Positions 1,528-40,142 of a stretch of 64,000 nucleotides of DNA are shown in pieces. The stretch's first letter is position 1; each line of letters starts with the position of its first letter. The notes under the pieces were generated by a model. It saw nothing but the letters and a program-made list of their open reading frames with translations. It was not told the DNA's origin and did not search any database. This DNA is from Eubacteriales bacterium (GTDB taxonomy: Bacteria; Bacillota; Clostridia; Oscillospirales; CAG-272), in assembly GCA_045122255.1 (NCBI GenBank), contig JBGVHJ010000063.1, forward strand, positions 25,610 to 89,609, read 5' to 3'. Both the position numbers and the translations under genes were made by a program.

Positions 1528-3285
1528 ATGTCAGAAAACGAAAAGAAAGACTTTGGTGGCGATGATTTTTGGAATCTTGACGAATACGCGAAGAAAAAAG
1601 CGCCCAAAACTCCTGTTAAGCAGTTTTCCAAAAGCGCAACCCAAGCGGTTGAAATTGGCGGTGTTGATAAAAACGGGGGCTCACCCGTAAGCTTTTCCGA
1701 CAGCAGGCTTTCAACAAAAGATTCAGACAGTACCATCACAAGGTTTATCCCTCCCCACAAGGATTCTGTATTTTCGAAAAAATACGTTCTATTTGAATAT
1801 GAGCCGCAAAATCCTCTTATAAAAAGCGTTAAGATCTGCGCCGACAGACCTGACGAAAAGCTTTTCCCCGAAACGAACCTTTTTATAAGAGAGCGTCGCG
1901 CCCTGCTTAACCGAAAAGCATCGGAATGCCCTCACGCTACCTATTATTCCTATTCTCCGCGCTACTCACAGATGAGCCGCGCCCAGCTTTCTTATTACCT
2001 ATGGTGGCGCGAAAATACAAGAAACGGCATATTCCTTAAGGCCGACGAATCCTATATTATTCTTTACGCCTATGAGCTTGCGGCAACGGGCGAAGGCGAG
2101 GACAAGCAAGCCGCGCTTGATATGCTTTGCGCCCTTCTGAAAAATTACACCGAAAAGGATATAAACGTGGTTTTCAGAATGATGATACGGGATATTATCT
2201 GCGACTTTTGTCTCATTCACGGTTTATCAGCTCCTTTGGAGCAGCTTTCGGGCGTGGGTCGGATACTGACGGCAAACGCGTTTTTGCCCGAATTTTTCAT
2301 CGATCTTTCCGAGAATAACCGTTCTCTCGCTATGGATCTCGGTCTTCCCGCGATTTCTATGTATGACTACAGAAAAAGCAAATTTTACACACCCGAGAAC
2401 AAGGAAATCTTCAAAAAAGCGATGAACGGTGCGCTTTCTGCAATGATCCGCGATGAAAACGCCTTCGGCGCGATCACATCTTTTACAAACGGAATGTACG
2501 GATGTGTGACGAGCGAGCGCAGGCCATTTGCGCGAATGATAAATATCGTCAATCGCTCAATTCGCTTTGAAATAACCTATTATCAGATCGCTAACATTCA
2601 ATCGGCTGTCACCGATGCTATGCGCTACTCGGAAAATAAGCTTCGCGAGCACATAGGCATCAAAAATAAGCTTCACATAATGGCGATAAATCCCGACATC
2701 AGATCGGCATTGGATGCATTTTTCAATGAAAACTATCCCCCCATGCCCGTGGTCGACAGACGGCGCAGAGATTCAAGGATCGCCGAAGAAGAGCCTCACG
2801 AATACGATAGGTTTTACGACGTTCCAAAAACCGAGCTTTCTCCCGAGCGCGCTCTCGAGATCGAAAGAGAGTCCTGGAGCACCACAAAGATACTGACCGA
2901 GGCTTTTGGAGACGAAGGTGAAGTAAAATTCGAAGAAAGCACAACGCTCAATGCTCCCGAGCTTATAATAGAACCGATATCCGAGCCCGTGTCCACGAAG
3001 GAATCGACCGTTGAAGAATCGTTTGAAGTCGCGGCTCAATCGCAGAGCGCAGGCGGTCTTTTTGAGAAGATAAAATCCGAGCTTGGAGAAATAGCCGAGC
3101 TTATTACATTGTGCAAATCCCCTTCACCGACCGAGCAACGTCGATTTGCCTCGGCACACGGTCTGACCCTTGATGAAATAGCAGACAGAATAAACGAATG
3201 TGCCGCTGACGTCTTCGGCGACATTATTCTTGAGGACGTAGGCTCAGCTTACGGAATCCTTGAAGATTATATTGACCAATTTTAA
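1528..3285 (+). CDS. TerB-N / TerB-C domain protein (SngA-like component of a Shango-type triad)
   Basis: 585 aa with no signal peptide or TM segment. The core ...HATYYSYSPRYSQMSRAQLSYYLWWRENTRNGIFLKADESYIILYAYELA... fits the TerB-N signature as I recall it. The tail ...LTLDEIADRINECAADVFGDIILED... fits TerB-C. SD AAAAGGAGGGG lies upstream of ATG 1528. Confidence 0.75.
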   Translation: MSENEKKDFGGDDFWNLDEYAKKKAPKTPVKQFSKSATQAVEIGGVDKNGGSPVSFSDSRLSTKDSDSTITRFIPPHKDSVFSKKYVLFEYEPQNPLIKSVKICADRPDEKLFPETNLFIRERRALLNRKASECPHATYYSYSPRYSQMSRAQLSYYLWWRENTRNGIFLKADESYIILYAYELAATGEGEDKQAALDMLCALLKNYTEKDINVVFRMMIRDIICDFCLIHGLSAPLEQLSGVGRILTANAFLPEFFIDLSENNRSLAMDLGLPAISMYDYRKSKFYTPENKEIFKKAMNGALSAMIRDENAFGAITSFTNGMYGCVTSERRPFARMINIVNRSIRFEITYYQIANIQSAVTDAMRYSENKLREHIGIKNKLHIMAINPDIRSALDAFFNENYPPMPVVDRRRRDSRIAEEEPHEYDRFYDVPKTELSPERALEIERESWSTTKILTEAFGDEGEVKFEESTTLNAPELIIEPISEPVSTKESTVEESFEVAAQSQSAGGLFEKIKSELGEIAELITLCKSPSPTEQRRFASAHGLTLDEIADRINECAADVFGDIILEDVGSAYGILEDYIDQF

Positions 3286-4745: not shown

Positions 4746-7091
4746 ATGACAGAGGCAGACAGAATATTTGAACGCTTTCCCGATTATATTCGAGAGTACA
4801 TCTATTCTCACTCATGGGAATCTCTGCGCGCCGTTCAAGTAGCGGCGGCAAAAACGATATTTGACACCGAAAACAATCTGCTACTCACCTCCTCCACAGC
4901 AAGCGGAAAGACCGAGGCGGCATTTTTCCCCATTCTTTCACTTCTTAACGAAGATCCGCCCGCCAGCGTTGGAGTGCTTTACATCGCCCCCTTGAAGAGC
5001 CTTATAAACGATCAGTTTGAGCGACTTGAAGAGGTTCTTGATATGACGGGAGTCAAGGTGACTCACTGGCACGGCGACGTTGCGGCATCTCACAAAAGGC
5101 GGCTTCTGGAAAAGCCAGAGGGAATATTGCAGATCACTCCCGAATCTCTCGAGGCTATGCTTATCAACCGTTCCAACGATATTCCGCGTCTTTTCGGAGA
5201 CCTCCGTTTCGTTGTAATTGACGAGATACACACACTGACAGGCACCGACCGAGGCAATCAGATAATCTGCCTGCTCTCGAGAATTGCCCATCTTATTGGA
5301 TATCATCCGCGCCGCATTGCCCTCTCCGCTACTATAGGAGACCCTACTCTCGCTGCCGAATGGCTGAATGCTGATACCGGAAGAGATATAGACGTGCCCG
5401 AATTGGCTCAGGAGAAGATTCGCTGGAGGCTGGGGCTTGAGCACTTCTATATCCAAAATCCCGAGGTTGAGGCATATAAGGAGCAGCAAAAAAAGGCTCA
5501 GATTACCGAGTCAAAGCCTGATAATGATGTGATTTTCGTTGAAAAGACCGCTGACGCTCCCGACAGTCAAAATTACACCGAAAATAGCGAGGCATATGAA
5601 AAGGTTGGCGGAAGCAAGCCTTATTACATCGATCCCGGCTACGAATACGCTTACGATTGTGTAAAAGATAAAAAATCCTTGGTCTTCTCCAATTCGCGAG
5701 AGGAGACAGAATACGTCTGCGCCACGCTCCGTCAGATAGCAAGGCTACGCGGTGACGAGGACTCGCACATTCTTATTCATCACGGCAATCTCTCGGCATC
5801 GCTTCGAGAGGAAGCCGAGATGAAAATGCGCGACGATGAGGAATTTGCCGTCACCTGTGCAACGGTCACTATGGAGCTTGGAATTGATATAGGTCAGCTT
5901 GAACGCGTTATGCAGGTCGAAGCTCCCAACAGCGTTTCAAGCTTTTTGCAGAGGCTGGGTCGCTCGGGCAGACGAAGCCAGACTCCCGAAATGATGATGG
6001 TATTCCGCGAGGAGGAGGCTCTCCCCAACACTCCTCTGCCGCAGCTTATTCCATGGGAGCTGCTTCGCGGTATCGCGATCATTCAGCTTTACATTGAGGA
6101 ACGCTTTATCGAGCCTCCCACGCGCAAAAAGATGCCCTTCAGTCTGATTTTCCATCAGACACTTTCAATGTTGGCTTCATCAGGTGAGCTTACTCCCGCG
6201 CGCCTTGCGCAAAGGGTGCTCTCTCTTCCTCCCTTCAGATTTGTAAGCCGCGAAGACTATAAAGCCCTTATAGTTTCGATGCTGAATAACGGCTTTATTG
6301 AGATGACCGAGGAAAAGGGGCTTATAGTCGGTCTTGTTGGCGAAAGACTCTTGAAGAGCTTCAAATTTTACGCGGTATTCAAGGATAGCGAGGATTTCAC
6401 GGTGCGTTGCGGCTCCGACGAGATCGGAACGATAACCACTCCCCCGCCCGTTGGCGACAGATTTGCTTTGGCAGGTCGCGTGTGGGAGGTGGAGGAGCTC
6501 GACATTACAAGAAAGCTGCTTTACGTTAAAAAGGTTGACGGCAAGATGGAGGTCTCGTGGCCCGGCGACTTCGGCGAGATACACACCAAAATTTTGCGCC
6601 GTATGAGGCGGATACTTGAGGAGGACACAGTTTATCCCTATCTCAAGGAAAACGCCTTAAAACGCTTAAATCAGGCTCGTGCGACCGCTCGAAACACCGG
6701 AATGCTTGAGCACTCTCTCGTTCATCTTGGCGGCTACTCCTGGTGTCTCTTCCCTTGGCTTGGAACACGCTCCTTCCGCACTCTGCGCAAGTACATAAAG
6801 AAAAATGCCGCGGCAAATAACCTGAGCGGCATAGAGTTTGAGGGCTGCTATTATATCACCTTCAAGATGGAAAAGGTATCGGATATACAGTTCATTTCCC
6901 GTCTGCTTGACGGAGTTGAGCGCGAGGGCATCGTGTGCGAGCACCTCGTCGAGAATAGCGAGATACCCGTGTTCGAAAAATATGATAACTATATTCCCCA
7001 CGACCTTCTTCGCAAGGCTTATGCCGCAGATAAGTTGCGAGCAGATGAAGCAGAAGCTCAGATACGAGCGATATTCGAAGAATTTGAATAA
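4746..7091 (+). CDS. Lhr-like SF2 DEXH-box helicase (SngC-like / BrxHI-like)
   Basis: 781 aa. Motif I is STASGKTEAA, II is VVIDEIH, III is SAT and VI is QRLGRSGRR. The long C-terminal region resembles the Lhr DEAD/H-associated region. SD is AAAGGAGG. Confidence 0.85.
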   Translation: MTEADRIFERFPDYIREYIYSHSWESLRAVQVAAAKTIFDTENNLLLTSSTASGKTEAAFFPILSLLNEDPPASVGVLYIAPLKSLINDQFERLEEVLDMTGVKVTHWHGDVAASHKRRLLEKPEGILQITPESLEAMLINRSNDIPRLFGDLRFVVIDEIHTLTGTDRGNQIICLLSRIAHLIGYHPRRIALSATIGDPTLAAEWLNADTGRDIDVPELAQEKIRWRLGLEHFYIQNPEVEAYKEQQKKAQITESKPDNDVIFVEKTADAPDSQNYTENSEAYEKVGGSKPYYIDPGYEYAYDCVKDKKSLVFSNSREETEYVCATLRQIARLRGDEDSHILIHHGNLSASLREEAEMKMRDDEEFAVTCATVTMELGIDIGQLERVMQVEAPNSVSSFLQRLGRSGRRSQTPEMMMVFREEEALPNTPLPQLIPWELLRGIAIIQLYIEERFIEPPTRKKMPFSLIFHQTLSMLASSGELTPARLAQRVLSLPPFRFVSREDYKALIVSMLNNGFIEMTEEKGLIVGLVGERLLKSFKFYAVFKDSEDFTVRCGSDEIGTITTPPPVGDRFALAGRVWEVEELDITRKLLYVKKVDGKMEVSWPGDFGEIHTKILRRMRRILEEDTVYPYLKENALKRLNQARATARNTGMLEHSLVHLGGYSWCLFPWLGTRSFRTLRKYIKKNAAANNLSGIEFEGCYYITFKMEKVSDIQFISRLLDGVEREGIVCEHLVENSEIPVFEKYDNYIPHDLLRKAYAADKLRADEAEAQIRAIFEEFE

Positions 7092-7100
7092 ATAATATAG

Positions 7101-19768: not shown

Positions 19769-19880
19769 CTACGGCTTTGCCGTAGATTTCACGCTCTCTT
19801 AGAGAGCATTTCACGTTGCAAAGCAACATTTCACATTTTGCGAAGCAAAATATTTCACCGCAAAAGCCACGGGCTTTTGC
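19769..19880 (-). repeat. Array of 5 perfect hairpins separated by 4 copies of GTGAAAT (minus-strand reading) between ricA and mutS
   Basis: Plus strand: ctacggc-ttt-gccgtag ATTTCAC gctctc-tta-gagagc ATTTCAC gttgc-aaa-gcaac ATTTCAC attttgc-gaa-gcaaaat ATTTCAC (c)gcaaaagcc-acg-ggcttttgc. Confidence 0.9.
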
Positions 19881-25311: not shown

Positions 25312-26592
25312 TTATTCGGGCTTGACGGTTGAAAGCACGAAATATTCGTCCTTGAAAGCCGTGTCAAGCAATTCATTAACGTACTCAAAGGTGATACTGT
25401 CAATAATGTCGGGGTATTCGAAAACGTCGATATTATCGTAAGCGTATCCCGTCAGCGCAAAGGCAATATCCTCGGTGGAATCAAAATCGGATATGTATGA
25501 CGCGTAAACGCATTTCTTCTCGCGCTCAAAATCCGACCTCTCAATTCCGTTTTCACGGCACTTGGCGATATGCGCCTTTATCTTTTCAAGAAGCGCCTCG
25601 GGATCGTCGCTCTCGCCCGAGATCATAACGTAAGCAGAGGCGGCACTTGCCGAATATCCGCTGTCAAAGCCCGGTGAAAGCATTCCCGACTCAAGCATTT
25701 CGAGGTAGAATTCTCCCGCCTCGGAAAGCATTACGTGCAGAAGCATATTCATTCCCGCGGTTTTTCTGTATCTCTCAAATGCCGATTCGGGGATAGCGCA
25801 ATCCTTAACACCGATGCAGAAAAGAGGCTTACCTACGGGCATCTTTCTTTCTACGTAGCTTTTTTTCACCTGCGCGGGCTCGTTGAAGCCAACAAAGCGA
25901 GACTTGAATTCTCTCTTTTCCTTGCCGATCTCGCGGTCAACCGCTTCAAGCACCTTTTCGGGGGTTACGTTACCGCTGATGGCAAGCACCATATTGCCGG
26001 GGGTGTAGAAATCCTTACAACAACGGTAAAGCACCTCGGGAGTGATCCTTGAGATCGATTCCTCACTACCGCAGATCTCATTCTTGACGGGATTTTCAAA
26101 ATACATCGCGTCAAGCATATTCATATAGCAGCGGTCGTACGGATCGTCGATGCATCCGCGGATTTCCTCCGCGATAATGCCGATCTCCTTTTTCACCGTT
26201 TGCTTTGTGAAATAGGGGTGAGTTACGAAATACAGAAGGTGAGACAGTGCCTCGTCCACATTATCGGTTGCCGAAAAAAGATACGCGGTGCGCTCGTTGG
26301 AGGTGTAGGCATTGTCGTATGCGCCGAGAGACGAAAATACGTCGTCCGCATTACTTCCGTCCTCGTTCTCAAAAAGCTTGTGTTCAAGGAAATGTGCGCA
26401 GCCTTGGGGCAATACGACTTTTTCGCCGTCAAGGCTATATTCAATGGCATTGCCGCCGAAATTGACCGAGAAAACTCCGTACGTCGTAGAAAGATTTTTC
26501 GGGAAAACGTATACGGTCAATCCGCTGTCGTGGTCTATTTTAAAATAATGCTCGCCAAGAAGAGCCGAATCGAATCGCTTTATCTCACTCAT
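25312..26592 (-). CDS. M16-family zinc peptidase (catalytic subunit)
   Basis: The inverted zinc motif HxxEH occurs in CAHFLEHKLF. ATG 26592 follows GAGGAGGAAG. The start overlaps the upstream stop (ATGAGTGA). Confidence 0.85.
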   Translation of the reverse strand: MSEIKRFDSALLGEHYFKIDHDSGLTVYVFPKNLSTTYGVFSVNFGGNAIEYSLDGEKVVLPQGCAHFLEHKLFENEDGSNADDVFSSLGAYDNAYTSNERTAYLFSATDNVDEALSHLLYFVTHPYFTKQTVKKEIGIIAEEIRGCIDDPYDRCYMNMLDAMYFENPVKNEICGSEESISRITPEVLYRCCKDFYTPGNMVLAISGNVTPEKVLEAVDREIGKEKREFKSRFVGFNEPAQVKKSYVERKMPVGKPLFCIGVKDCAIPESAFERYRKTAGMNMLLHVMLSEAGEFYLEMLESGMLSPGFDSGYSASAASAYVMISGESDDPEALLEKIKAHIAKCRENGIERSDFEREKKCVYASYISDFDSTEDIAFALTGYAYDNIDVFEYPDIIDSITFEYVNELLDTAFKDEYFVLSTVKPE

Positions 26593-29967: not shown

Positions 29968-29996
29968 TTGACATTAACGTAATTAAGTGTTATACT
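29968..29996 (+). promoter_or_regulatory. Promoter upstream of repeat-element copy 1 and tmcAL
   Basis: TTGACA (29968-29973), 17 nt, TGtTATACT (-10 at 29991-29996). Confidence 0.55.
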
Positions 29997-30033
29997 GTTA
30001 ATGGTCAAATTTTGATTTGCCGTAAAGATATAA

Positions 30034-30221
30034 AGTGATATTGTTGCTTCGCAACAGTGGTATTTCCCTTGCGGGAAGTGATATTGTTCAGCTTTGCTGA
30101 ACAGTGATATTCTATTCGCCACTTTAACTTGCGTAGCAAATACCACTCGGTGTAAGCCGAATATCACTGCGAAGCAATACCACTCGCCGCAGGCGAATAG
30201 AACTGCGCACCTTCGGTGCGC
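30034..30221. repeat. Composite motif-hairpin element, copy 1: 4 x AGTGRTATT (forward), then 5 x AATAYCACT-like (reverse), each separated by a perfect mini-hairpin
   Basis: Read directly from the sequence. The unit list is in the findings. Confidence 0.9.
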
Positions 30222-30237: not shown

Positions 30238-31446
30238 ATGAAAACCGTTGGCATCGTATGCGAATACAACCCTTTTCACACGGGGCATGCGCGGCAGATA
30301 GATATTCTGCGCAAGAGTGGCGCCGAGGTGATAATATGCGCTATGAGCGGCAATTTTTCAGAGCGCGGAGAGCTTACAGTTGCAGACAAATACACTCGCG
30401 CAGAGGCGGCTGTAAGATGCGGCGCGGATATAGTAGTTGAGCTTCCCTTTCCCTATTCTTCGCTTTCGGCAGAAGGATTCTGCTCTGCGGGCGTCCACAT
30501 TCTCTCGTCTCTTGGTTGCGATACTCTTTCATTTGGAAGCGAGAGCGCAGACGTGGCGCTTCTTCGTCGCGCGGCTGATATAGCTTCCTCTCCCGAATTC
30601 GTCTCGGATTATGCCGAGATCTGCAAAAATCAAGGCTCGGCAAGGGCTTATTTCGACCTGCTTTCCGAAAAGCTTGGCGAGGATGCAAGGCTTCTTTCAA
30701 ACGATATTTTGGGCATATCCTACGTTGCCGCCATCAAGCATCAAGGCTCCGTGATGGAGATATTCCCCATAAGTCGCGAGGGAGCGGCTTATAAGGAAAC
30801 CGAGCTCGGCGGCCCTTATCCCAGCGCGACCGCCATCAGAAAGGCGACCAATGAATCGCAGAAGGGCTTTTTCGCTATCAGCTGTGACAATATCCCCACC
30901 CCTGCCCTCGAAGCCTTGAAAAGGGCTCAAAATGACGGTCTCGCGCCGGTATTTACCGACAGTATCGGATCGGATATCCTCAGCTTTTTCAAGCTTATGT
31001 CACCCGACGAGATAATTTCTCGCGCTACTAAAAGATCGGGCGGCGGAGATTCGGTCTGCTGCGACGGATGCGGTATTGTAGAAAGAATATGCAACAGTGC
31101 AAAAGCATCAAAAGATCTCGGCGAAATGCTGAAGGCATCATACAATTCAAGATATCCCGATGCAAGGATCAACCGCGTAATTCTCTTCTCCATGCTTGGC
31201 GTATCGGATGCTTTTGAAAAATCGCTACCCGAATACACCCAGCTTTTAGGAGCAAGCGACGCGGGACGAAAATACCTCTCGAATATCCGCAAGTCTTCCG
31301 CTTTCCCCATAGTCACAAAGCCTGCCGACGCTCCCGAAGCAACGGCAACGGGTATCCTCCATCTTTCCGACTCACTTTACGCATCCGCTATGCCAAAGGA
31401 CGTAAATTTCGATTATTTTCTCAAAAAACACCCATATATGGGCTGA
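30238..31446 (+). CDS. tmcAL: tRNA(Met) cytidine acetate ligase (YlbM/TmcAL family nucleotidyltransferase)
   Basis: MKTVGIVCEYNPFHTGHARQI matches the YlbM N-terminus, and SD AAAGGAGAG lies at 30225-30233. The 48 codons upstream in the track ORF merely translate the repeat array. Confidence 0.85.
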   Translation: MKTVGIVCEYNPFHTGHARQIDILRKSGAEVIICAMSGNFSERGELTVADKYTRAEAAVRCGADIVVELPFPYSSLSAEGFCSAGVHILSSLGCDTLSFGSESADVALLRRAADIASSPEFVSDYAEICKNQGSARAYFDLLSEKLGEDARLLSNDILGISYVAAIKHQGSVMEIFPISREGAAYKETELGGPYPSATAIRKATNESQKGFFAISCDNIPTPALEALKRAQNDGLAPVFTDSIGSDILSFFKLMSPDEIISRATKRSGGGDSVCCDGCGIVERICNSAKASKDLGEMLKASYNSRYPDARINRVILFSMLGVSDAFEKSLPEYTQLLGASDAGRKYLSNIRKSSAFPIVTKPADAPEATATGILHLSDSLYASAMPKDVNFDYFLKKHPYMG

Positions 31447-37713: not shown

Positions 37714-38964
37714 ATGGCAAACGCAAGATACGAGTCCGCTAAGGAAATCTACGCAAGATACGGCATTGATACCGAAGCGGCTATCGCAAAGCTTTCCGAC
37801 GTTCGCATTTGTATGCACTGCTGGCAGGCAGACGACGTAAGAGGTTTCGAGGGTACTGGTACTCTCTCCGGCGGTATTCAGACTACCGGTAACTACCCCG
37901 GCGGCGCTCGCAACCCCGACGAGGTTTTCGCAGACCTTGACAAGGCTCTCTCCCTCATTCCCGGAACCCACAAGATCAACGTTCACGCTAACTACGCTAT
38001 CGCTGAGGATGGCGAGGTTATCGACCGTGACACCATTGAGCCCCGTCACTTCAAGAGATGGGTAGAGTTCGCAAAGGCTCATAACTGCGGTCTCGATTTC
38101 AACCCCACCTTCTTCTCTCACCCCAAGGCAGGCGGTCTTACCCTTTCCAGCCCCGACGATGAGATCAGAGCTTTCTGGGTAAAGCACGGTATCGCTTGTA
38201 TCCGCATCTCCGAGTACTTCGCTCGTGAGACCGGTTATCCCTGCGTAATGAACATCTGGACCGGCGACGGTACAAAGGATATCCCCGGCGACAGAATGGG
38301 TCCCCGTCAGAGATATGCTGACTCCATCGACCAGATCATCGGCTGCGGCTACGACAAGAGCTTGGTTTACGTAACCGTTGAGTCCAAGGTATTCGGTATC
38401 GGTGTTGAGGCTTACACCGTAGGTAGTGCTGAGTTCTCTCTCGCATACGCTATGACCAGAGGTATCACTCCTCTTATGGATAACGGTCACTATCATCCTA
38501 CCGAGGTAGTTTCCGATAAGATCCCCGCGCTTCTCGTCTTCTCCGACAAGATCGCGCTTCACATCACCCGTCCTATCCGTTGGGACTCCGACCACGTTGT
38601 TGCATACGACGATGAGACCCGCGAGATGATGAAGGAGGTCGTTCGTTGCGACGCTCTTGACAGAGTATTCCTCGCAACCGACTACTTCGACGCTTCTATC
38701 AACCGTGTAGCGGCTCTCGTTATCGGTATGAGAAACGTTCAGAAGGCTCTTCTTAACGCTCTTCTTACTCCCAATGCTGAGATCAAGGGCTATCAGGACA
38801 AGGGCGACTTCACCAAGATGCTAATGCTCCAGGAAGAGATCAAGACCCTTCCCATGGGCGACGTATGGAACGAATTCTGCGAAAGAAACGGCGTTTGCGG
38901 CTGCTCTTGCTGGTTCAAGGAGATCGAAAAGTACGAGGCTGAGGTTCTCTCCAAGAGAGTTTAA
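37714..38964 (+). CDS. rhaA: L-rhamnose isomerase
   Basis: 416 aa. The N-terminus ...ICMHCWQADDVRGFE... and overall length are typical of RhaA. Confidence 0.9.
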   Translation: MANARYESAKEIYARYGIDTEAAIAKLSDVRICMHCWQADDVRGFEGTGTLSGGIQTTGNYPGGARNPDEVFADLDKALSLIPGTHKINVHANYAIAEDGEVIDRDTIEPRHFKRWVEFAKAHNCGLDFNPTFFSHPKAGGLTLSSPDDEIRAFWVKHGIACIRISEYFARETGYPCVMNIWTGDGTKDIPGDRMGPRQRYADSIDQIIGCGYDKSLVYVTVESKVFGIGVEAYTVGSAEFSLAYAMTRGITPLMDNGHYHPTEVVSDKIPALLVFSDKIALHITRPIRWDSDHVVAYDDETREMMKEVVRCDALDRVFLATDYFDASINRVAALVIGMRNVQKALLNALLTPNAEIKGYQDKGDFTKMLMLQEEIKTLPMGDVWNEFCERNGVCGCSCWFKEIEKYEAEVLSKRV

Positions 38965-38977
38965 TTCTGAATCACCC

Positions 38978-39028
38978 AAAAAATCGGCTGCCGATGCCCA
39001 ACTTCTCATAAGGAAGTTGGGCAGTTTT
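38978..39028. terminator. rhaA terminator region (two adjacent hairpins, usable from either strand)
   Basis: ATCGG-CTG-CCGAT (38983-38995) is preceded by A6. GCCCAACTTC-TCATAAG-GAAGTTGGGC (38996-39022) is followed by AGTTTTA. Confidence 0.7.
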
Positions 39029-39193
39029 ATTCGCCTGCGGCGAGTTCTATTGCTTCGCAGTGATATTCGTCTTGCGACGAGTGGTATTCGCTACGCGAGT
39101 TTAGGAGGCGAATAAAATATCACTAAAGCCGTAGGCTTTAATATCACTGTTGCGTAAGCGGCAATATCACTCCGACGAAGTCGGAATATAACT
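39027..39193. repeat. Composite motif-hairpin element, copy 2 (opposite orientation to copy 1)
   Basis: cgcc-tgc-ggcg AGTTCTATT gc-ttc-gc AGTGATATT cgtc-ttgc-gacg AGTGGTATT cgc-tac-gcg AGTTTAGGA GGCGAATAA AATATCACT aaagcc-gta-ggcttt AATATCACT gttgcgtaagcggc(aa) (AA)TATCACT ccgac-gaa-gtcgg AATATAACT. Confidence 0.9.
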
Positions 39194-39221
39194 TGACTAA
39201 TTGTCGATTTTGATGTATAAT
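39193..39221 (+). promoter_or_regulatory. Promoter of the four-helix-bundle gene; the -35 abuts the last repeat unit
   Basis: TTGACT (39193-39198), 17 nt, TATAAT (39216-39221). Confidence 0.55.
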
Positions 39222-39239
39222 ATTTGCAGAGGTGATGTT

Positions 39240-39596
39240 ATGTCAAACAGCGTTATGAGAGATAAAGCAAAGGATTTTGCAAAGAATATTGTCTTCCTCT
39301 GCCGTAATATGAAGGCAGAGCATAAAGAAACGGTGCTTATAAATCAACTGCTGCGTTCAGGCACTTCCATTGGTGCGAACATTCACGAAGCACAATATGC
39401 ACAAGGTACAAAAGACTTTATATCTAAACTTGAAATTGCTCAGAAGGAATGCTATGAAACAGAATATTGGCTTGAGCTTTTATTTGAAACCGGTTGTATT
39501 GAAGAATGTATTTACAAGTCTATTCAGAACGATTGCGGAGCAATTCGCAGAATGTTGATTGCTTCCTTGAACACAATTAAATCAAAACAAGAATAG
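39240..39596 (+). CDS. Four-helix-bundle protein (23S rRNA intervening-sequence protein / Avd-like family)
   Basis: MSNSVMRDKAKDFAKNIVFLCRNM...LLRSGTSIGANIHEAQ...YWLELL is the family signature as I recall it. ATG 39240 follows AGAGGTGAT. Confidence 0.75.
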   Translation: MSNSVMRDKAKDFAKNIVFLCRNMKAEHKETVLINQLLRSGTSIGANIHEAQYAQGTKDFISKLEIAQKECYETEYWLELLFETGCIEECIYKSIQNDCGAIRRMLIASLNTIKSKQE

Positions 39597-39683
39597 GGGT
39601 ATGGGCTCTGCCCGAACCTTTGTAATACAAAGGCGAAACTGGCGATAAATATGAAATACTACGAATTGGCGGGATAGTTATTT

Positions 39684-40142
39684 ATGTGTATGATTTGTGA
39701 TAGAATCAAAATGATCAAGCAAGGGACGAACCCTTGGTTTGTCAAGGAATTAGAAACCGGATACGTTGTCATTGGAGATAATCAACATTTTAATGGCTAT
39801 ACATTATTCCTTTGCAAAGAACACAAGACAGAACTCTTTCAATTAGACTATTCTTCAAAAATGAAATTTCTGGAAGAAATGTCCGTTGTTGCCGAAGCCG
39901 TAGCAAAAGCGTTCAACGCTGAGAAAATGAACTATGAGTTATTAGGTAATGGCGATACCCATCTGCATTGGCATTTGTTTCCCAGAGTAAGCGGAGATTT
40001 AGAAGGCTACGGAAACAACGGGAAGGGACCTGTGTGGTGGTATCCAATGGAAAAAATGTACAGTTCGGAGAATCGTCCTGATAAAGAAAGGTTGAATGCC
40101 TTGAAGAGAAATTTGGCAGAAGAATTGGAAAAACTTTTATGA
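39684..40142 (+). CDS. HIT-family (histidine triad) protein
   Basis: The histidine triad is GDTHLHWHLFPR. Confidence 0.8.
   Translation: MCMICDRIKMIKQGTNPWFVKELETGYVVIGDNQHFNGYTLFLCKEHKTELFQLDYSSKMKFLEEMSVVAEAVAKAFNAEKMNYELLGNGDTHLHWHLFPRVSGDLEGYGNNGKGPVWWYPMEKMYSSENRPDKERLNALKRNLAEELEKLL

Follow-up and report, generated by a model that had tools for sequence, protein, structure and literature searches.

What is the array of short motifs and hairpins that lies between rhaA and the gene of a four-helix-bundle (4HB) protein in an Eubacteriales bacterium of the Oscillospirales (GTDB CAG-272; assembly GCA_045122255.1, contig JBGVHJ010000063.1)? The window, i.e. the whole stretch of DNA that was analysed, comprises 64,000 nucleotides (positions 25,610 to 89,609 of the contig), and all coordinates below count from its first letter. 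A sequence-only reading had described the array at 38978-39221 (el.2) as a second, inverted copy of an element at 30034-30221 (el.1), and had proposed that it may be an independent small RNA gene on the minus strand, whose adjacency to the 4HB gene may or may not be meaningful. We found that el.2 is a copy of a dispersed intergenic repeat of gut Clostridia, termed here the double-armed Gut-1 element, in the form that bears an open reading frame (ORF), and that its neighbourhood to the 4HB gene is indeed meaningful. As to its role, we tentatively prefer a modular or selfish boundary cassette, similar to the intervening sequences (IVSs) of 23S rRNA, which would combine a terminator, hairpin arrays that can form on either strand, a promoter for the 4HB gene and the 4HB protein as partner; we regard this as quite possible, if somewhat short of probable.

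The building unit of the family is a conserved motif of 7-9 nt, (A)GUGAUAU(U), followed by a variable hairpin. With at most one mismatch, the 9-mer AGTGATATT occurs 28 times in the window versus 15.6 +/- 3.9 times after shuffling (none of 100 shuffles reached 28), the excess being confined to two clusters, 30034-30184 and 39059-39193. On the plus strand of el.2 there are four forward-type motifs, as described before (AGTTTTATT at 39023, AGTTCTATT at 39043, AGTGATATT at 39059 and AGTGGTATT at 39080). Of the five reverse-type motifs counted in the earlier description we found four (AATATCACT at 39116, 39140 and 39163, and AATATAACT at 39185). GGCGAATAA (39107-39115) lies within one half of a perfect inverted repeat, referred to as the closing repeat since it closes arm A (9-12 bp in the family). 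Its 5' half TTTTATTCGCCT (39025-39036) is 100% complementary over 12 nt to the 3' half AGGCGAATAAAA (39106-39117), which forms the centre of the element. The two arms face each other across this centre. Arm A, the conserved arm (39023-39106, plus strand), has the orientation of Weinberg's Gut-1 motif and consists of AGTTTTATT, CGCC-TGC-GGCG, AGTTCTATT, GCTTCGC, AGTGATATT, CGTCTTGCGACG, AGTGGTATT, CGCTACGCG and AGTTTAGGA. Arm B, the variable arm (39116-39193, minus strand), reads on the plus strand AATATCACT, AAAGCCGTAGGCTTT, AATATCACT, GTTGCGTAAGCGGC, AATATCACT, CCGACGAAGTCGG and AATATAACT, and includes both hairpins that had been named previously, aaagcc-gta-ggcttt (39125-39139) and ccgac-gaa-gtcgg (39172-39184).

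The array is framed by transcription signals on the plus strand, and its placement after a rhaA terminator and before a 4HB promoter agrees with the sequence-only reading. The rhaA ORF (37714-38964, plus strand; PF06134 RhaA, E = 2.5e-176) ends with its stop codon at 38962-38964. It is followed by an A6 run and a 13-nt mini-palindrome, ATCGGCTGCCGAT (38978-38995), which on the minus strand reads as a hairpin (38995-38983) and T6; an A-run followed by a spacer of ~12 nt is seen repeatedly at the arm-A edge of the unit in other loci. Next comes the boundary ('T') hairpin, a 12-bp, terminator-like structure of the plus strand at 38995-39023 (TGCCCAACTTC-TCATAAG-GAAGTTGGGCA), which together with the following AGUUUUAUU is the predicted intrinsic terminator of rhaA. 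Boundary hairpins of the el.2 type were also found at loci L011, L020, L034, L045, L051 and L205, with compensatory variants at L206 and L209; since the same hairpin family follows unrelated genes elsewhere, the hairpin has to be counted as part of the repeat unit. At the other end, an outward sigma-70-type promoter match (TTGACT-17-TATAAT, 11/12; 39193-39221, plus strand), the -35 box of which overlaps the last base of the terminal motif, is predicted to drive the 4HB gene. This gene (39240-39596, plus strand; Shine-Dalgarno (SD) sequence GAGGTGAT at 39229-39236) encodes 118 amino acids of the PF05635 family (S23p, or 23S rRNA intervening-sequence protein; E = 5e-28).

Read on the minus strand, el.2 is 71% identical to the plus strand of el.1 over ~171 nt (39023-39193 versus 30034-30204) with all parts in the same order, which bears out the second, inverted copy. 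Both start with three units of AGTGATATT plus variable hairpin and a fourth AGTGATATT. These are followed in the middle by nTATTCGCC, nnAAACT and a small C-GNA-G hairpin, then by AATAYCACT, a hairpin, AATATCACT, GCGAAGC, AATAnnACT and CGCC-loop-GGCG, and finally by AATAnAACT and a GC-rich hairpin. In el.1, all on the plus strand, arm B corresponds to 30034-30111, the centre to 30112-30138, arm A to 30139-30204 and the boundary hairpin to 30205-30221.

A scan of the window at Rfam gathering thresholds returned a single family, Gut-1 (RF01706), at 19781-19860 of the minus strand, a solo array to which we return below. Under E-value thresholds, el.1 and el.2 each split into a facing pair of sub-threshold Gut-1 matches, one per strand: 30033-30115(+) with 45.4 bits and 30135-30205(-) with 44.1 bits for el.1, 39022-39092(+) with 44.8 bits (E = 1.5e-5 for the whole window) and 39112-39194(-) with 36.5 bits for el.2. 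Whole-window E-values of the four arms range from 1e-5 to 2e-3; none of them reaches the gathering score of 50 bits, and no other Rfam family was matched at E <= 0.01 anywhere in the 64 kb. Gut-1 is defined by at least three tandem hairpins with a 7-nt linker of the GUGAAAU type, a definition that every arm here fits with its four motifs and three to four hairpins. The motif was described in 2010 from 43 human-gut metagenome sequences and rated a likely non-coding RNA, with no function proposed (PMC2864571).

The element shares with Gut-1 the tandem short hairpins of free sequence split by a conserved 7-nt linker (GUGAAAU there, GUGAUAU here) and the origin from gut metagenomes and Clostridia; arm A additionally agrees with several seed members in orientation, preceding terminator and sequence type. 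Indeed, the seed alignment already holds members of the GUGAUAUU type that are located after a stop codon and predicted terminator or after a tRNA. Two of these, BAAZ01000095 and BAAZ01025322, read GUUAUAUUCGCC..GUGAUAUU.. and have AAUAUCAC arrays in their unmodelled flank, from which it follows that the published motif is one arm of a double structure. A near copy of BAAZ01025322, locus L334, has a 4HB gene downstream. Whereas the published motif is a single array classed as a small RNA, the element has two facing arrays on opposite strands and is further distinguished by the closing repeat, by a terminator of its own, by the outward promoter that it often has and by its link to a PF05635 gene, features that are absent from the text on Gut-1 in the Weinberg paper. 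Our literature search retrieved no Gut-1 work later than Weinberg 2010 and, on links between S23p and repeats outside rRNA, nothing besides that paper and the IVS papers. The single arm is thus already known; the two-armed architecture and the link to S23p are not in the literature searched.

A three-motif pattern, for which we expect ~0.15 chance hits (our own rough estimate from the degeneracy of the pattern), matched at least 119 stretches in species-representative genomes, nearly all of them metagenome-assembled genomes (MAGs) of Clostridia (Oscillospiraceae, Acutalibacteraceae, 'Eubacteriales', Ruminococcus, Faecousia, Christensenella, Butyrivibrio), and a pattern for the centre matched at least 120 metagenome stretches, nearly all from gut and rumen. 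In total, more than 240 loci of gut and rumen Clostridia were found to carry the element. From Rfam hits and regular expressions we parsed 126 distinct full copies, each with 4+4 units and a stereotyped motif spacing of ~25, 22, 25, 36, 21 and 16 nt. The repeat is multi-copy: there are two double-armed and one single-armed copies in these 64 kb, several MAGs were matched on more than one contig, and two copies lie within 8 kb of each other at L021, L023 and L086. A phage origin was rejected. Among 75 hits in 2.9 million viral contigs only two (L127 and L132) are true copies; the other 73 are tandem repeats of ordinary coding sequence, whose spacers are identical and not palindromic. The family also includes solo arrays as well as double arms whose centre is longer. 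Variants with a long centre (~90 nt) or a terminal AGTTGNGGA were seen at L112 (4985-5300) and L067 (~6896-7100, minus orientation), and solo arrays frequently end in a sequence resembling AGTTGTGGAATATTCC.

If the hairpins matter, their stems should be maintained while their sequences change, and this is what the copies display. Each of the six hairpin positions has 25-87 distinct sequences among the 126 copies, with a Watson-Crick fraction of 0.87-0.94 across all positions. At the variable hairpins h1-h3 and h5 the fraction is 0.90-0.93 versus 0.47-0.53 with shuffled partners, and in none of 200 shuffles, in which 3' halves were swapped between copies, was the real value reached. Position 9 of a motif pairs with position 1 of the next one, a pair that switches from T-A to G-C 17 times; the unpaired core therefore is 7 nt long (GUGAUAU), as long as the GUGAAAU of Gut-1. 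The closing repeat nTATTCGCC / GGCGAATAn' shows no mismatch (9/9) in 111 of 126 copies; at its variable position 61/65 combinations are complementary (T-A, A-T, C-G). The repeat competes with the local CGCC..GGCG hairpin. A further arm-to-arm 'ladder' of AGUGAUAUU with AAUAUCACU, as in stacked four-way junctions, was rejected as a conserved feature. Its pairing has a predicted probability of only ~0.3 and competes with other folds, and the motifs of arm B are nearly invariant (57/60) while its hairpins vary, with arm-A motifs drifting at positions 4 and 5 without compensation. Overall, predicted folds are stable (z = -5 to -6.6) but heterogeneous.

Which strand, and whether RNA or DNA, is folded can be read from these pairs to a limited extent only. 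Stems are nearly all Watson-Crick (1660 pairs), and wobble-type pairs number 42 on the strand of the AAUAUCACU hairpins versus 25 on the Rfam-sense strand (p = 0.05). We tried the balance of G-U versus A-C as a test for the functional strand and discarded it, as the weak difference favours the GNRA-loop strand and wobble pairs are too rare overall; the strand modelled by Rfam, at any rate, is not favoured by G-U usage. The loops after AATATCACT are GAA, GTA, GCA, GTAA and GCAA, i.e. C-GNA-G triloops and GNRA tetraloops, and the shortest hairpin is nearly always GCGAAGC, an unusually stable mini-hairpin in DNA. On the other hand, invariant U-G, A-U and U-G contacts at the hairpin bases are possible only in the Rfam sense and only as RNA. 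We conclude that selection acts on hairpin formation in both strands.

The genomic context is no less regular. With the elements oriented as el.1(+)/el.2(-), 48 of 64 genes adjoining arm A are convergent, that is, transcribed toward the element, with the stop codon at a distance of 50-66 nt (mode ~55), and 37 of 58 genes adjoining arm B are divergent; co-directional neighbour pairs split 23 to 4 between the two orientations. Read on the other strand, the order therefore is gene A, hairpin plus AGUUnUAUU, arm A, centre, arm B and gene B. Gene A belongs to diverse families. At ~13 loci the sequence immediately beyond the boundary hairpin reads, in reverse complement, as the 3' end of a tRNA, and a scan of 15 loci returned tRNA genes in 13 and a transfer-messenger RNA (tmRNA) gene in one. 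Terminator-like sites were found in 85 of 118 copies in the direction of gene A versus 21 of 118 in the opposite direction. An outward promoter match of at least 10/12 is found at arm B in 34 of 121 copies, and in 31/121 the -35 box starts 0-7 nt from the end of the arm; the same promoter is present at the offset of el.2 at L195/L204, L205, L206 and L208-L212. Promoters of this quality that point into the element occur in 18/121. Judged by these predicted signals, the unit looks like a portable module of terminator, hairpin array and promoter.

These numbers bear directly on the proposed minus-strand small RNA of ~230 nt. It would start at ~39210, from TTGACA-18-TATTAT, and end at the hairpins and T6 of 38978-39022, thereby holding arm B in the Gut-1 sense followed by arm A in antisense. 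Its signals do exist at el.2: the candidate promoter occupies 39217-39246 of the minus strand (TTGACA at 39246-39241, an 18-nt spacer, TATTAT ending at 39217; 11/12), and the hairpin upstream of the T6 has 5 bp. Further points in its favour are the minus-strand Gut-1 match of arm B (36.5 bits), the boundary hairpin of the tRNA-linked subfamily, a symmetric A-run/stem/T-run terminator that would stop such an RNA, the fact that several solo arrays end at terminators in their own sense direction, and the rating of Gut-1 as likely non-coding RNA (PMC2864571). However, TTGACA stems from the start of the 4HB gene (ATG-TCA-AA, Met-Ser-Asn), of which it is the reverse complement, and the hexamer decays to TTGGAC (L045) or TTCGAC (L098) where the synonymous Ser codon is TCC or TCG; TATTAT likewise mirrors the TATAAT of the 4HB promoter. 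Given this decay and the scarcity of inward promoters, the minus-strand promoter was rejected as a conserved signal. Terminators in that direction are rare as well, with the T-run usually 10-13 nt past the hairpin, and in many copies the space directly 5' of arm B is taken up by a long hairpin or the end of a gene, where no promoter would fit. With inward promoters in 18/121 and such terminators in 21/118, the other copies lack the consistent framing by promoter and terminator on which the proposal would depend. An independent small RNA gene is thus very improbable, whereas a weak minus-strand transcript may be made at el.2 itself.

An RNA from the other strand deserves more weight, though we still hold it to be rather unlikely. 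Arm A would become a plus-strand Gut-1 RNA, derived from the rhaA 3' region by read-through or by processing after the boundary hairpin. The 12-bp helix 39025-39036/39106-39117 would enclose three small hairpins joined by AGUGAUAUU strands, and the RNA might serve e.g. as protein sponge, 3'-end protector or RNase target, with arm B as a mirror for opposite transcripts. The sense orientation of arm A downstream of a co-directional gene at a fixed distance in 48/64 fits this well, as do the solo arrays, of which 14 of 21 lie downstream in sense. There is covariation in the closing helix, three of whose four exceptions would be G-U on the plus strand; the RNA-only contacts at the hairpin bases, pairs of a kind that the Rfam consensus includes, and the folding z-scores point the same way. 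On the other hand, the terminator-like hairpin precedes arm A in those 85 of 118 copies, so that little RNA should reach it. Wobble pairs are not in excess in the Rfam sense (25 versus 42), the GNA/GNRA loops and the GCGAAGC mini-hairpin are on the opposite strand, and the ensembles are heterogeneous, with a mean pairing probability of 0.12 for the closing helix. A model of one strand also leaves the mirror arm and the linkage to the 4HB gene unexplained.

In an enrichment analysis of the neighbours, 4HB was the sole recurrent gene family. Among 112 elements with enough flank, 36 have the gene or its footprint: 14 are followed by an intact gene, starting ~46 nt from arm B, 5 by a partial gene and 17 by the footprint only. 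The footprint is motifX, located in the window at 39597-39649 (plus strand) and composed of two small palindromes, GGGC-TCT-GCCC and CCTTTGTA-ATA-CAAAGG, and CGAAACTGGCGATAAA. In every cassette it comes after the stop codon of 4HB (also at L109, 3056-3110, and L204, ~1857-1912), has the consensus GGGTATGGGC-nnn-GCCC, CCTTTGTAATACAAAGG, CGAAACTGGCGATAAA, often runs directly into the SD sequence of the next gene and has no Rfam match. In the 17 elements that have motifX without the ORF it occurs in either orientation relative to the element; nine are in cassette orientation and eight inverted, and in the nine motifX stands exactly at the distance expected without the 357-nt ORF.

Approached from the protein side, the result is the same. 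All seven gut 4HB homologs examined (P0082, P0094, P0046, P0026, P0056 and two on 'phage' contigs; 49-97% identity) are preceded by the element, always in the same geometry, so the adjacency noticed in the sequence-only reading is meaningful. The genes upstream of the element in such contexts are unrelated (GH31, AzlD, PhoU, isocitrate/isopropylmalate dehydrogenase (Iso_dh), RhaA, tRNA), and the closest relatives of el.2, with 88-94% identity, are other 4HB-linked copies located after Iso_dh, AzlD and PhoU genes. The 49% identical homolog at L335 is accompanied by a double-armed element built on GUGAAAU/AUUUCAU instead of GUGAUAU, so that a change of protein lineage goes along with a change of motif. 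Among solved structures PDB 2RLD is closest (E = 1e-28), an entry of five chains for an uncharacterised member of the S23p family, and a protein search returned at least 7991 relatives at E <= 1e-10, many of them on short contigs broken inside the element.

We inspected nine loci with more distant PF05635 genes (31-49% identity; Nostoc, Bernardetia, Treponema, Monoglobus, Euhalothece, Chondrinema, Planktothrix, Chlorohelix and Gloeocapsa), and in all of them inverted repeats made of short tandem repeats bracket the gene. In several of them the repeats contain AGTGA, and many of the genes are wedged in defence or transport operons. The operon settings include hsdS-hsdR, DrmD-MmeI, helicase-N6 methylase, DUF1156-HEPN and RND adaptor-permease pairs (L333, L341, L342, L343 and L340; plasmid records). 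GTGA-bearing flanks are (GGTGAAAG)n over ~300 nt, (TTAGTGA)x16 and (ACCAGTG)n at L336 (Treponema saccharophilum pTS1), L337 (Bernardetia) and L339 (Euhalothece). The likeness of these repeats from other phyla to the GUGAUAU/GUGAAAU cores may be a coincidence. In the IVS of Coxiella burnetii, an S23p ORF has heptameric repeats by its start codon, and its inverted repeats are cleaved by RNase III; IVSs are also described as having decaying ORFs, and it has long been hypothesised that they are mobile (PMC4990558). With their inverted short tandem repeats the distant PF05635 loci match this published picture (PMC4990558).

The double-armed element resembles the 23S IVSs in several respects. In both, a PF05635/S23p ORF is tied to a structure built from palindromic repeats, heptameric repeats lie near the ORF start, versions with intact, decaying and absent ORF coexist, the phylogenetic spread is patchy, and for the IVSs a mobile or selfish origin has been proposed. 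It differs in being intergenic, between protein or tRNA genes, rather than inserted in rRNA, in the strong predicted promoter and the SD sequence of its own that the ORF has here, and in the interleaving of the 7-nt cores with hairpins. In its boldest form, for which we see an outside chance only, the comparison would mean that Gut-1 is one arm of an IVS-like palindromic element whose 7-nt cores (often AGTGA) or arrays are recognised by a pentameric S23p/PF05635 protein, both components spreading together, in a selfish or regulatory manner, as RAYTs do with REPINs.

The latter systems also suggest an explanation at the level of DNA. REP, BIME and REPIN sequences (repetitive extragenic palindromes, bacterial interspersed mosaic elements and REP doublets forming hairpins), all of proteobacteria, as well as BOX, ERIC and Correia elements, are dispersed extragenic repeats, REP being associated with the gene of a Y1 transposase, the REP-associated tyrosine transposase (RAYT). 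Like these, our element comprises dispersed multi-copy extragenic palindromes in inverted pairs, mostly just past gene 3' ends, with one associated protein gene flanked by repeats (RAYT there, 4HB here); terminators or promoters are carried by some of the families. It departs from them in that REP palindromes are conserved within a genome, whereas here the palindromes vary and the linker is conserved; in that there is no gene of a RAYT, which in REP systems is encoded nearby and recognises a GTAG-type head, 4HB being the only recurrent neighbour family; and in that the family spans several families of Clostridia, REP being species-specific. Avd of diversity-generating retroelements, to which the 4HB gene had been compared, has a distantly related four-helix-bundle fold and forms pentamers. 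No reverse transcriptase adjoins the 4HB gene (template/variable repeats were not searched for), and the sequence matches of 4HB to PDB, led by 2RLD, include no Avd structure.

According to such a DNA-level model, the palindromes would form extruded hairpins or cruciforms when the DNA is single-stranded or supercoiled, and a protein of the host or one encoded by the element would read the 9-mers, as in a REP/BIME/REPIN- or att-like site for recombination, replication-linked processing or supercoil buffering; RNA would be irrelevant. We rate it about as low as the plus-strand RNA. The nearly pure Watson-Crick stems on both strands (1660 pairs versus 42 and 25 of wobble, i.e. G-T, type) and the C-GNA-G or GNRA loops on one strand per unit, including GCGAAGC, would be expected from it, and so would inverted arms, reminiscent of transposon ends or REPINs. 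The copies are dispersed and numerous, assemblies often break inside them, near-identical cassettes differ in synteny on their two sides, and some copies lie beside the 3' ends of tRNA and tmRNA genes, which are classic integration sites. Yet no recombinase or transposase is associated among the neighbour genes, the unit spacing of 22-25 bp is out of helical phase, and variable palindromes with a conserved linker are the reverse of REP elements. Moreover, the conserved T-G at motif positions 8/2' would be a mismatch in DNA, and the orientation bias relative to transcription as well as the fixed distance to the stop codon fit the transcript level more naturally.

As a boundary cassette, the unit would be a portable divide between transcription units, ending rhaA at the hairpin plus AGUUUUAUU, insulating what follows and restarting transcription for 4HB. 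Its hairpin arrays would fold in single-stranded nucleic acid of either strand, and a polymerase reading through from either side would meet a sense Gut-1 array first. Palindromic repeats with an optional S23p-family ORF that spread or recombine to new intergenic sites would amount to an IVS-like behaviour, and the 4HB protein, probably a pentamer, would be the likely trans-acting partner of the repeats. Several observations weigh against this reading. About two thirds of the elements have neither 4HB gene nor footprint nearby; no transposase or recombinase recurs among the neighbour genes, and target-site duplications were not found; copies inside one genome usually differ in their hairpins, which counts against recent bursts of copying. 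The few G-U pairs and the weak strand bias make the RNA and DNA levels inseparable, and the stable GNA/GNRA loops are on the strand opposite to the Gut-1 sense of Rfam, in which the loops are unremarkable complements. As regards the likeness to IVSs, no inverted repeat spans the ORF, both arms being upstream of it in the window, and there is no rRNA match anywhere in the window, hence no insertion in helix 25/45. Finally, the 'boundary' context is typical, not universal: el.1 itself has an atypical position in a 5' untranslated region.

This copy lies between a strong promoter match (29968-29996, TTGACA-17-TATACT, preceded by TG) and the gene of a TmcAL-like protein (HIGH_NTase1; ATG at 30238); with the promoter upstream and this gene downstream, el.1 should be transcribed as a 5' leader of ~235 nt. 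Copies of the el.1 subtype at L030 and L088 are beside a convergent gene instead. The third family member of the window, a relative of the arms of el.1 and el.2, is the single-armed Gut-1 array at 19781-19860 (minus strand; GUGAAAU x4 plus variable hairpins), which with 63.8 bits is above the gathering score. It is located between the stop codon of the upstream gene and the start of mutS (ATG at ~19735) and has no mirror array.

Other subfamilies combine the arms with additional parts. What we call 'group 3' (L016, L020, L026, L033, L035, L036, L056, L065, L074, L080, L093, L096, L097, L102, L109 at 3006-3170, L114 and L270) has 5' of arm B an A-run, a degenerate boundary hairpin or remnant of the 4HB 3' end, and motifX; the sequence to the left of motifX could equally be the one or the other. 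It also has a T-run preceded by a long hairpin that co-varies, CAGAAGAGAGAGT...ACTCTCTCTTTTCTG; the whole unit is ~420 bp long with inverted, terminator-like ends. A second subfamily (L008, L018, L021, L028, two copies at L086, L107, L006 and L029) has a conserved outward promoter, TTGCAC-17-TATACT, with TG, and an unusual SD sequence, GGCGGTGA, with which an upstream CCACCGC could pair; since unrelated genes for small membrane proteins, lipoproteins or zinc-ribbon proteins follow, promoter and leader appear to drive different cargo.

In the window, the neighbours of the 4HB gene are RhaA, a HIT protein, a flavodiiron protein and a GH2 enzyme. The start region of the HIT-family gene after the cassette (39684-40142) has a homologous counterpart after the cassette at L205 (~1140-1170 versus 39660-39700 of the window). 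As the upstream gene at L205 encodes AzlD instead of RhaA while the downstream HIT start is homologous, this suggests that the element marks a synteny breakpoint.

Annotators should read sub-threshold Gut-1 hits on both strands as the mark of a repeat element that interrupts synteny and, in abundant gut bacteria, also causes assemblies to break. Ever since its description in 2010, Gut-1 has been an orphan among Rfam families, reported from gut metagenomes alone and without assigned function or partner; the PF05635/S23p family is very common and has solved structures. The two are linked here: Gut-1 arrays occur as mirror-image pairs with a terminator and a promoter of their own, the S23p-family gene adjoins such a pair in all seven gut homolog contexts examined, and motif variants change along with the protein lineage. 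This leads to one testable hypothesis, namely that the 4HB pentamer would bind the arrays and that the cassettes would move. If true, the two-component reading would explain together the 23S IVSs, the 4HB genes wedged in restriction-modification and other operons, and the Gut-1 arrays.

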